Shown here piece by piece: positions 58,861-61,283 of a DNA stretch of 64,000 bases. How positions within the stretch are numbered: position 1 is the stretch's first letter; the number at the start of each line of letters is the position of its first letter. The DNA is taken from NCBI RefSeq assembly GCF_000027125.1, contig NC_017626.1. One strand, written 5' to 3'. Source of the stretch: Escherichia coli 042. GTDB lineage: Bacteria > Pseudomonadota > Gammaproteobacteria > Enterobacterales > Enterobacteriaceae. A program made the translations under genes and the position numbers. Below the pieces are notes generated by a model. It was not told where the DNA came from, ran no database searches, and saw only the letters and a program-made list of their open reading frames with translations.

Positions 58861-59148
58861 ATGAAAGCAAAAAATTCTGGCTTTACTGCCAGCGGTAAAA
58901 CTCGTCCTAAATTCATGCACGGCGATATTTACCGCGATAAATACGGCAGCACGGTAATGATTAAGGGCGTGAGTGAACGACGCATTACCTACCGCCGTGA
59001 AGGATACAAATATGACTGCGTGATGCCTGTTTATCAGTTCCAGCGTGATTTTACGCTGGTGGATCATCGTGAAACCGTAAATCAGAACCGTGCAGCAAGA
59101 TACATCCGCAAAATCTGCGAAATGATGGTTACTGGGGGCAAGAAATGA
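58861..59148 (+). CDS. hypothetical protein
   Basis: 95-aa basic ORF; stop overlaps the primase start (ATGA). Confidence 0.5.
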   Translation: MKAKNSGFTASGKTRPKFMHGDIYRDKYGSTVMIKGVSERRITYRREGYKYDCVMPVYQFQRDFTLVDHRETVNQNRAARYIRKICEMMVTGGKK

Positions 59149-61283
59149 AACGCGCACCGAATTTAAAGCACCAGCCGAAAGACAAAATGACGGAGGTGAT
59201 TATCTTTGCGGGTAGTGATGCCTGGGCACATGCGAAAGAGTGGAGCGAATGGGCCGGAAAGCATATTGCGGCAGATGATACACATCCAGTTATTCTTGGA
59301 CCGGAACAACTGGCGAGTCTGGCAGACACGCAAATCATCGACAAAGGGCGCTATTACGTGCGCGTTTATCGTGCTGGTGAAATATCAGAGCAGCACCTTA
59401 CACAGATAGCGACACTGCTTGCAGTGGCGGGTGTGAAGGAGGCGCGTTGCTACCGCAGCTTTGTTGATCAGCAGCCGGAGGACTGGACACCGCGCATGGC
59501 TGGACTGAAGGATGATGCGGAACGCGGTAACAGTCTGGTGATCAACCTTCCGGCGAAGACAAATTTCACCGGAAATTATGATGACGAATTAAAGCCTCGT
59601 GTTGAAAGTCGCGTCGATGGTGTTTTCTGGGTAACGCCCAAAGTGGACAAGCAGTCAGGCGAAATTATCCGGCCTGAGACGTGGTTATGTTCTCCGCTTG
59701 AACTACTGGGAACAGGAACAATCGGCAAAGAGCATTACCGCGTGATGCGCTGGAAAAAACCAGCAAACCATGAGGTCATTACAATGGCGGTCCCGTGCGG
59801 AGGCATTGGTGACCGTGACGGCTGGCGGTTGCTGAAAGACCACGGCCTTAACGTGACGACCAACGGCAAATACAGGGCTATCCTGGCTGACTGGATGCAG
59901 TTAAGCGGAAACCATGAGGAATGGCAGTTAAGCACAACAACGGGGTGGCATTTTGGTGCGTACATCATGCCGGATGGTTCGATCATCGGTGAATCAGAGA
60001 AACCCATCCTGTTTACCGGAAAAACTGCCGCTGTTAATGGCTATTCCGTGGCGGGAACAGCGGAGGGCTGGCGCGATACCGTGGCACGGCTGGCTGGTGG
60101 TAATCCGTCCATGATGCTGGGTGTGGCGGTATCGCTATCTGCACCATTAATCGGGCTGGTGGGTGCTGACGGCTTCGGGGTTCATCTTTTTGAGCAATCA
60201 TCAGCAGGTAAAACCACCACACAGAACATTGCATCAAGTTTATGGGGAGAGCCGGACGCGCAACGGCTGACCTGGTACGGAACGGCGTTAGGTATCGCCA
60301 ACGAGGCCGAAGCACATAATGACGGGCTGTTACCCCTGGATGAAATAGGCCAGGCCGGAAACGCACGGGAAGTGTCCACGTCGGCTTATACGCTGTTTAA
60401 CGGTTCGGGGAAATTACAGGGGGCGAAGGACGGCGGCAACAGGGAGATAAAACACTGGCGAACAGTGGCAATCAGTACCGGAGAAATGGACGTTGAAACA
60501 TTCCTCAAAAGTGAGGGGATAAAAGTCAAGGCTGGGCAGCTTGTCCGGTTGCTTAACGTGCCGATGGAGAAGTCCACGCAGTTTCACGAATACAGCACAG
60601 GAAAGGCGCACGCAGACGCGTTAAAGGATGCCTGGACAGCAAATCACGGGGCGGCAGGTCGTGAGTGGATTAAATGGCTAGCAGCCCACCAACAGGAGGC
60701 TAAGGACACGGTAAGGGCATGCCGTGAACGGTGGCGCAACCTGATACCGGAGAGCTACGGCGAACAGGTTCACCGCGTAGGGGAACGATTCGCCATACTG
60801 GAGGCCGCGCTTGTGCTGTCAGGCAATGTTACGGGCTGGGATGTTCAGGCGTGCCGTGATGCCATTCAGCATAACTTTAATGCCTGGGTGAAGGAGTTCG
60901 GCACGGGTAACAAGGAACACAGGCAGATTATTGAACAGGCAGAGGCATTTCTTACTGCCTACGGCATGAGCAGGTTTGCGCCTGTCAATTATGACCCTGC
61001 AAGCCTGCCGATTTCAGAACTGTACGGCTACAGGGAAAGCGAGGGGCGTTACGGTGAGCCTGTTTTGTTTTACGTCCTGCCGGAGCCATTTAAATCGCAT
61101 GTGGCGAAGGGATTTAACAAGGATGCCGTAGCAAGAGCCCTTCACGAAGCCGGAATGCTGAAAAAGCCAGCCAGCGGGGAAGGATGGCAAATCAGAACAC
61201 CACGTCTTAAGCACATGAAGGGGGCACGACTAAGGGTGTACGGCCTTTTACTTGCACAGGATCATGATGATGAAGGTGGTTAA
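59145..61283 (+). CDS. primase-helicase replication protein (Toprim-like N-terminal region plus D5/P-loop NTPase)
   Basis: 712-aa ORF; DxD motif GGIGDRDG, Walker A SSAGKTT, Walker B-like LLPLDE; followed immediately by iterons. Confidence 0.65.
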   Translation: MKRAPNLKHQPKDKMTEVIIFAGSDAWAHAKEWSEWAGKHIAADDTHPVILGPEQLASLADTQIIDKGRYYVRVYRAGEISEQHLTQIATLLAVAGVKEARCYRSFVDQQPEDWTPRMAGLKDDAERGNSLVINLPAKTNFTGNYDDELKPRVESRVDGVFWVTPKVDKQSGEIIRPETWLCSPLELLGTGTIGKEHYRVMRWKKPANHEVITMAVPCGGIGDRDGWRLLKDHGLNVTTNGKYRAILADWMQLSGNHEEWQLSTTTGWHFGAYIMPDGSIIGESEKPILFTGKTAAVNGYSVAGTAEGWRDTVARLAGGNPSMMLGVAVSLSAPLIGLVGADGFGVHLFEQSSAGKTTTQNIASSLWGEPDAQRLTWYGTALGIANEAEAHNDGLLPLDEIGQAGNAREVSTSAYTLFNGSGKLQGAKDGGNREIKHWRTVAISTGEMDVETFLKSEGIKVKAGQLVRLLNVPMEKSTQFHEYSTGKAHADALKDAWTANHGAAGREWIKWLAAHQQEAKDTVRACRERWRNLIPESYGEQVHRVGERFAILEAALVLSGNVTGWDVQACRDAIQHNFNAWVKEFGTGNKEHRQIIEQAEAFLTAYGMSRFAPVNYDPASLPISELYGYRESEGRYGEPVLFYVLPEPFKSHVAKGFNKDAVARALHEAGMLKKPASGEGWQIRTPRLKHMKGARLRVYGLLLAQDHDDEGG

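Follow-up and report, generated by a model that had tools for sequence, protein, structure and literature searches.

A DUF927/MCM-like initiator-helicase, most likely without a primase of its own, and its iteron origin in a small PICI-type island of Escherichia coli

The 64-kb stretch of the Escherichia coli 042 chromosome analyzed here (contig NC_017626.1; hereafter the window) carries an island of about 8.2 kb, inserted at tRNA-Pro(GGG) between yejM and yejO/narP. All of the island genes lie on the plus strand, in the order int, alpA, DUF4222, rep, ori, ssb, proQ/finO and perC (Table 1), and it is the 712-residue product of rep that concerns us. An earlier reading of the sequence alone, made without database searches (the sequence-only reading), had seen in this open reading frame (ORF) a Toprim plus P-loop primase-helicase that replicates the island. 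Our results argue for a different division of labor. We favor a model, to which we assign a probability of roughly 75%, in which Rep is a self-loading DUF927/MCM-like AAA+ initiator-helicase of a small satellite island of the phage-inducible chromosomal island (PICI) type, most likely without its own primase. We regard Rep as an ordinary member of the known class of PICI Reps; the new detail lies in its modular architecture and in its two-part origin, and these findings refine the PICI replication module without overturning the current understanding of it.

Table 1. Features of the island, with positions in the window (aa, amino acids; a dot marks features without strand)
Feature	Position	Strand	Remarks
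Integrase (int)	56120-57364	+	
AlpA-type regulator, then ash pseudogene, then Icd-like ORF and small ORF		+	between integrase and DUF4222
isrK match	58213-58289	+	Rfam, 52.9 bits, above gathering score
C4 antisense RNA match	58314-58401	+	Rfam, 77.7 bits, above gathering score
DUF4222 ORF, 95 aa	58861-59148	+	Pfam PF13973, 2e-24
rep, 712-aa initiator-helicase (DUF927, MCM-like AAA+)	59145-61283	+	ATG start, TAA stop
N-terminal domain, aa 1-134	59145-59546	+	four-stranded alpha/beta, then disordered linker
Beta-rich N-domain of DUF927 core, aa ~150-300	59592-60044	+	holds GGIGDRDG (59799-59822)
AAA+ ATPase module, aa ~301-480	60045-60584	+	motif conservation; structural similarity to Cch, SaPIbov1 Rep and MCM
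Walker A SSAGKTT, aa 352-358	60198-60218	+	
Walker B LLPLDE, aa 395-400	60327-60344	+	
S444-T-G-E447			AAA+ module, sensor-1 region
Candidate arginine finger R468	60546-60548	+	
C-terminal winged-helix module, aa 606-705	60960-61259	+	model; mosaic identity; covariation with iterons
Origin cluster 1	61307-61445	.	two inverted iterons, 54-bp spacer (69% A+T), four direct (T)GGGACAAG
Island SSB, 141 aa	61520-61945	+	first gene past the origin; Pfam SSB, 2e-15
ProQ/FinO gene, then PerC gene		+	downstream of SSB
Origin cluster 2 (probable)	63598-63741	.	mirror image of cluster 1, beyond ssb-proQ-perC, 2.3 kb downstream

Rep and its helicase core

The start codon of rep overlaps the stop codon of the DUF4222 gene (ATGA) and is correctly placed, because relatives align with Rep from residue 1 (MK.APN.K); the ORF delimited in the sequence-only reading is therefore real. 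Relatives are abundant: an index search returned 1,879, and a full scan of representatives of clusters formed at 50% identity returned 10,524, with 2,458 of these below 1e-30. The protein family is present in hundreds of E. coli genomes. Three other complete genomes have rep at 99.9% DNA identity, and the other listed genomes have it at the same site at ~94-95% over 86% of the query. A full-length homologue (66% identity, 98% coverage), annotated as hypothetical, lies at 98639-100738 of the 106-kb Klebsiella phage P12620-1 (PQ569648.1) and could represent a satellite that was co-assembled with, or is embedded in, the phage genome.

The sequence-only reading had proposed family profile searches and structure prediction as checks, and together these define the core of the protein. 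The sole Pfam domain in Rep is DUF927 (PF06048), matched by aa 169-436 at 1.1e-46 with 160.2 bits against a cut-off of 22.6, and the NCBIfam Cch1 model gives a sub-threshold match (38.4 bits where 700 are required; E 5e-10). A helicase core was recovered by the profiles; Toprim and D5_N were not. Only two solved structures are matched by the Rep sequence, namely the Rep of the Staphylococcus aureus pathogenicity island (SaPI) SaPIbov1 (8tch, E 9e-15, aa 214-605) and Cch of the staphylococcal cassette chromosome SCCmec (5dgk). The same two proteins head the structural comparison. An AlphaFold2 model of Rep, built on 69 sequences with a mean predicted local distance difference test score (pLDDT) of 91.9, has Cch as its best Foldseek match (E 1.2e-23, template modeling score (TM) 0.77) and SaPIbov1 Rep as its second (E 9.5e-23, TM 0.70), followed by MCM2-7 subunits, BrxL, ComM and the superfamily 3 (SF3) SaPI Reps. 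Overall, the modeled fold is like that of Cch and SaPIbov1 Rep, and this includes the C-terminal winged helix.

The catalytic motifs of the AAA+ module are conserved to match. The Walker A and Walker B motifs picked out in the sequence-only reading are genuine: G355 and K356, as well as G446, are kept in all 69 relatives, and 68 of the 69 have D399; the same count holds for E400, S444, E447 and R468. R468 is a candidate arginine finger. Residues ~150-705 of Rep are a DUF927, MCM-like AAA+ initiator-helicase.

Members of this family are described as self-loading initiator-helicases; the proteins that have been studied unwind DNA in the 3'->5' direction, and their C-terminal winged helix recognizes short iterons that flank an A+T-rich spacer directly after the gene (PMC9371898, PMC7581432). 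SaPIbov1 Rep and Cch share with our Rep the DUF927 domain, the AAA+ motifs and an overall fold that extends from ~aa 150 through the C-terminal winged helix, at ~17-18% identity in structural alignment. The genes of SaPI Reps, like rep here, are immediately followed by short iterons that point in opposite directions on the two sides of an A+T-rich spacer (PMC9371898). The systems differ in host, since SaPIbov1 Rep and Cch belong to staphylococcal islands and Rep to E. coli, in the extra 134-residue domain at the N-terminus of Rep, and in the second, mirror-image iteron cluster that lies 2.3 kb away in the island described here. In addition, SaPIs encode a separate or fused primase, whereas none is recognizable in the window island.

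The C-terminal module and a two-part iteron origin

Among close E. coli relatives Rep is a three-part mosaic in which aa 31-135, 150-605 and 606-705 switch partners independently, and one core allele carries all four pairings of two N-terminal and two C-terminal alleles. The last of these segments is the winged-helix module, whose role in SaPI Reps has been described (PMC9371898). We compared it with the DNA that follows the rep stop codon in the islands of six relatives (L006-L011). The module of the query goes with the iteron TGGGACAAG; modules 94%, 77% and 45% identical to it go with TGGGAC(A/G)AC, TGAGGCAAC and TGAGACAAC, respectively, and a module with 35% identity goes with TAACCCGCA. 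The protein that carries this most distant module is 99% identical to Rep over aa 1-480 and ~89% over aa 481-605, and a second protein with a module of the same type (87% identical to it) is also followed by TAACCCGCA. While the iteron changes, the layout does not: the four relatives with 35-94% module identity all have two inverted copies, at a distance of 9-10 bp, separated by an A+T-rich spacer from direct copies mostly 21 bp apart, and the relative with 45% identity has the same two-cluster design in reversed order. Such covariation argues strongly, if indirectly, for recognition of the iterons by aa 606-705 and for Rep as the origin-specific initiator. It fits the part of the sequence-only reading in which Rep, as the replication protein of the island, is a P-loop helicase acting on the adjacent iterons, and it amounts to a series of domain swaps made by nature, with origin specificity predicted to go with the 100 C-terminal residues.

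Directly 3' of rep lies the cognate iteron origin, an A+T-rich spacer flanked by repeats of both orientations. The sequence-only reading had the stop codon abutting these iterons; the iterons do follow rep, but they start at ~61307, about 24 nt past the end of the TAA at 61283. The two inverted iterons of cluster 1 (61307-61327) are 9 bp apart and its direct (T)GGGACAAG copies are spaced 11/21/21 bp. Cluster 2 consists of three inverted CTTGTCCCA at intervals of 22/21 bp, a spacer of 43 bp with 72% A+T and three direct GGTGGGAC 9 bp apart, and is closed by a (TA)6 tract at 63730-63741. Nine of the ten copies of TGGGACA in the window fall within the two clusters. The equivalent of cluster 2 adjoins cluster 1 in four of the related islands (L006, L007, L008 and L010), with a (TA)n tract in three of the four, and in L011, where the distance is 4.4 kb, it has the iteron cognate to the L011 Rep. 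Cluster 2 is probably part of the same origin system, and the origin seems to be two-part, whether contiguous or split; that otherwise similar islands have it in one piece or divided by kilobases provides a testable handle. The iteron architecture matches that described for the origins of Gram-negative PICIs (PMC6092414) and SaPIs (PMC9371898).

One of the related islands mixes two iteron types. In L006 the clusters next to rep (8164-8440) use TGGGAC(A/G)AC, while a third, distal cluster (10664-10778) keeps CTTGTCCCA of the window type, which suggests that rep and its adjacent origin entered an older backbone by exchange as a block.

Extrapolating from the characterized relatives, we envision a scenario in which the winged helix of aa 606-705 reads the (T)GGGACAAG iterons, in opposite orientations on either side of the A+T-rich spacer, and in which this binding melts the spacer. 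The AAA+ module, with its Walker A and Walker B motifs and R468, would then assemble as a ring, presumably a hexamer, and would unwind DNA with 3'->5' polarity. Priming would come from the host or a helper, perhaps by way of the island SSB encoded next to the origin. This protein ends in an acidic C-terminus (...DDPYEDEIPF), like the acidic tail by which the host SSB recruits replication proteins, and the resemblance suggests a possible route to host priming.

The alpha protein of satellite P4 offers an instructive comparison. It unites origin recognition and helicase in one protein, as we propose for Rep, and it binds repeats at both ori and a separate site, crr, of which the two-part origin is reminiscent. 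However, P4 alpha is a primase joined to an SF3 helicase, whereas Rep is MCM-like and has no recognizable primase; its core is DUF927 rather than D5_N/SF3. None of psu, delta and sid was found among the annotated island genes or Pfam matches, so by these marks the island is not a P4-like satellite. Replication of P4 needs alpha and the cognate ori (PMC6092414).

The N-terminal domain and the question of a primase

What precedes the helicase core differs among Rep relatives. Those of ~600 aa have no N-terminal extension, and those of ~900 aa carry Zn_Ribbon_Prim (or PriCT_2) and Toprim_3 ahead of the same core. In the enterobacterial primase-helicases of the latter size the DUF927 core is 45-61% identical to that of Rep from ELKPRVES (~aa 146) to the end, but their ~350 N-terminal residues include a zinc ribbon and a recognizable Toprim (EGYATA, DNDxxG), and the 134-residue domain of Rep has neither. 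The best-surviving alternative to our model is that this domain is a highly divergent, active Toprim-type primase and Rep a bifunctional primase-helicase. The domain does sit where the zinc ribbon and Toprim_3 stand in the longer relatives, and the PHROG families that match Rep are labeled 'DNA primase'. We nevertheless consider this alternative unlikely. Toprim families gave no Pfam match, either to the whole of Rep at E<=1 or to residues 1-173 at E<=10, and at permissive thresholds Rep has no Pfam or NCBIfam match to a zinc-ribbon (Zn_Ribbon_Prim) or archaeo-eukaryotic primase (AEP) family. Zn_Ribbon_Prim and Toprim_3 are recognizable in the ~900-aa relatives, and their lack in Rep is therefore a real one. 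When hhalign was used to compare the N-terminal family with those relatives, in three runs against their N-termini or their Toprim regions, the probability was 0.07-0.24%.

The residues of the domain tell the same story. In a set of 28 diverse members, G23, A26, P48 and L56 alone never vary. None of the acidic residues is conserved, and both the catalytic Glu that a Toprim has after strand 1 and the DxD that it has after strand 3 are lacking. GGIGDRDG (aa 219-226), which the sequence-only reading took for the DxD of an N-terminal Toprim, is present in Rep but lies inside the DUF927 match, and its acidic positions vary, with G, E or S at 223 and E, D or A at 225 in relatives; the Toprim primase proposed on its strength finds no footing in profiles, acidic residues or zinc ribbon. 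Structure is neutral on a Toprim fold: modeled alone, the domain reaches a pLDDT of 88.5, and its best Foldseek match, at E 0.11, is below significance. A PDB profile search with the N-terminal family returned only spurious WD40-repeat matches. Rep most likely has no primase of its own, to judge from its sequence, and we read the N-terminal domain as non-catalytic, although it may have descended from a Toprim. Its annotation would accordingly change from 'primase-helicase' to 'origin-binding initiator-helicase without recognizable primase'.

If not a primase, what might this domain be? It is hypervariable and it recombines. In a sister island at the same site (L003, E. coli JNEC-KY178) the DNA is mostly 85-100% identical to that of the window island, apart from a few short intergenic stretches that are lower, and yet 59240-59600 (aa ~31-150) shows only 43-59% DNA identity, as in a cassette swap, with the rest of rep, DUF4222, the iterons and SSB unchanged. 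DUF4222 and SSB were considered as covarying partners of the domain and rejected, each being 98-100% identical in DNA between the two islands while the domain is ~40% identical. Their constancy in the face of N-terminal variation makes an island-encoded covarying partner unlikely.

The domain also stands ahead of other cores. The first ~140 residues of Pri-Rep from the PICI EcCICFT073 are homologous to it (42% identity, E 2e-27), and a profile search, which returned only proteins of <=272 aa, many of them annotated as partial, also found it ahead of AAA_25 ('helicase RepA family') and D5_N fragments. It is always preceded by a DUF4222 gene. Behind it there are three types of core, DUF927, SF3 D5_N and AAA_25/RepA-type (the latter two types in L012 5242-6993, which is EcCICFT073 Pri-Rep, and in entries P0285, P0291, P0290 and P0315), and the N-terminal allele on the AAA_25 fragment P0285 is much like that on the DUF927 protein P0007. 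In some short proteins the domain is fused to the C-terminal part of SSB (P0277, P0283, P0319 and P0346) or of the major capsid protein (P0332 and P0353); these fusions look like PICI deletion derivatives that lost the helicase core.

As far as the sequences indicate, the N-terminal domain is a shared, hypervariable, recombining head on three unrelated helicase cores, and we infer that it could serve as an adaptor or regulatory module directed to host or helper factors. This variability is also the one observation that bears on the idea, raised in the sequence-only reading, that Rep might be a target or mediator of helper-phage interference. More tentatively, and at well below even odds, we suggest that it is a portable, fast-diversifying adaptor rather than a primase, which links DUF927, SF3 D5-like or AAA_25 helicases to an external partner. 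If so, the partner could be either the priming and replisome machinery of the host or helper or a protein of the helper phage that permits or prevents replication of the satellite, the variety of alleles would be a mark of specificity for helper or host or of an arms race, and the 'Pri' in the Pri-Rep of Gram-negative PICIs would be a misnomer. A cassette common to three unrelated helicase families may explain how primers are supplied or how the helper is sensed.

The island and competing explanations

The chromosomal genes to the left of the island are radD, rplY, yejK, yejL and yejM, followed by tRNA-Pro(GGG) at 55837-55913, and homology to K-12 ends at 55915. On the right, homology resumes ~93 nt past the end of the window, as seen in a near-identical genome that matches the final 14 kb of the window at 98.5% identity, and CTCTCGTGCC, from the 3' end of the tRNA, recurs at this junction. 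Exact matching within the window found no attachment (att) repeats because the right junction lies beyond its end. PICIs of 8.5-11.4 kb are listed at a 'yejM-luxR' site in Table S1 of Fillol-Salom et al. 2018 (PMC6092414); we read 'luxR' as narP, and the island thus occupies a catalogued PICI attachment site. Its layout is that of Gram-negative PICIs as well, with int and alpA at the left, unidirectional transcription, and rep followed by an iteron origin.

An experimentally studied counterpart is EcCICFT073, in which the genes run as they do here (int, alpA, Icd-like ORF, DUF4222, rep, ori, ssb, perC) and iterons likewise flank an A+T-rich region past the rep stop codon. EcCICFT073's pri-rep-ori segment drives plasmid replication (PMC6092414). 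The core of its Pri-Rep (D5_N, DUF5906 and Pox_D5; SF3) is, however, unrelated to the DUF927 core of Rep, and EcCICFT073 has capsid genes and two lambda-type cosN, neither of which the window island possesses. No capsid, terminase, packaging or redirecting genes are annotated in an identical island (L001), no lambda-type cosN occurs in the island at <=2 mismatches, as compared with two exact copies in EcCICFT073, and a search of the island for P2 cos was negative. Judged on annotated genes and lambda-type cosN, a PICI packaging or interference module is absent.

Two considerations weigh against our model. EcCICFT073 Pri-Rep, which has the same N-terminal domain, replicates a plasmid in DH5alpha without a helper (PMC6092414), a finding that also favors the bifunctional primase-helicase; priming by the host is then sufficient, unless the domain possesses an activity that has gone unrecognized. 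Second, the island may be reduced or decayed, given the ash pseudogene and the missing capsid and packaging genes and lambda-type cosN. The intact ORF and its near-identity in three other genomes do not guarantee that Rep functions today. The latter point leads to an alternative that we hold to be slightly less likely still than a divergent primase, namely that the island is a decayed satellite in which rep and ori are intact but unused and in which the distal iteron cluster, a remnant of recombination, is no working part of the origin. Its size and gene losses, the truncated N-terminal fusions to SSB or capsid in other genomes and the mismatch in L006 between the distal iterons and those beside rep speak for such a relic. 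Against it, rep is full length and conserved at 99.9% DNA identity, the catalytic motifs are all intact, and the distal cluster retains the layout of three iterons, spacer, three iterons and (TA)n, with a cognate iteron in the L011 copy. That Rep is instead an MCM-like AAA+ defense ATPase resembling BrxL or ComM is very improbable, and we rejected it on Foldseek score and island context, since the BrxL and ComM matches (E ~1e-6 to 1e-5) are ~17 orders of magnitude weaker than those to Cch and SaPIbov1 Rep, the downstream iterons covary with the C-terminal module, and rep occupies the pri-rep position of characterized PICIs.

Several smaller features of the island deserve mention. Together the isrK and C4 matches, a short way upstream of the Icd-like ORF, look like an RNA immunity module of the P1/P4 type; the immunity regions of P1 and P4 similarly combine a C4-type antisense RNA with an icd-like ORF. 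The DUF4222 ORF is found directly 5' of rep in the related islands L006-L012, EcCICFT073 included. A DUF4222 gene also stands beside excisionase remnants in a lambdoid prophage of CFT073 (L004 5192-5431), and the family is therefore not confined to PICI rep operons. Between perC and cluster 2, in non-coding DNA at 63114-63330, GATCATTT occurs four times, in two instances as AAATGATCCCCC and in the other two as GGATCATTT; these copies are possibly protein-binding sites.

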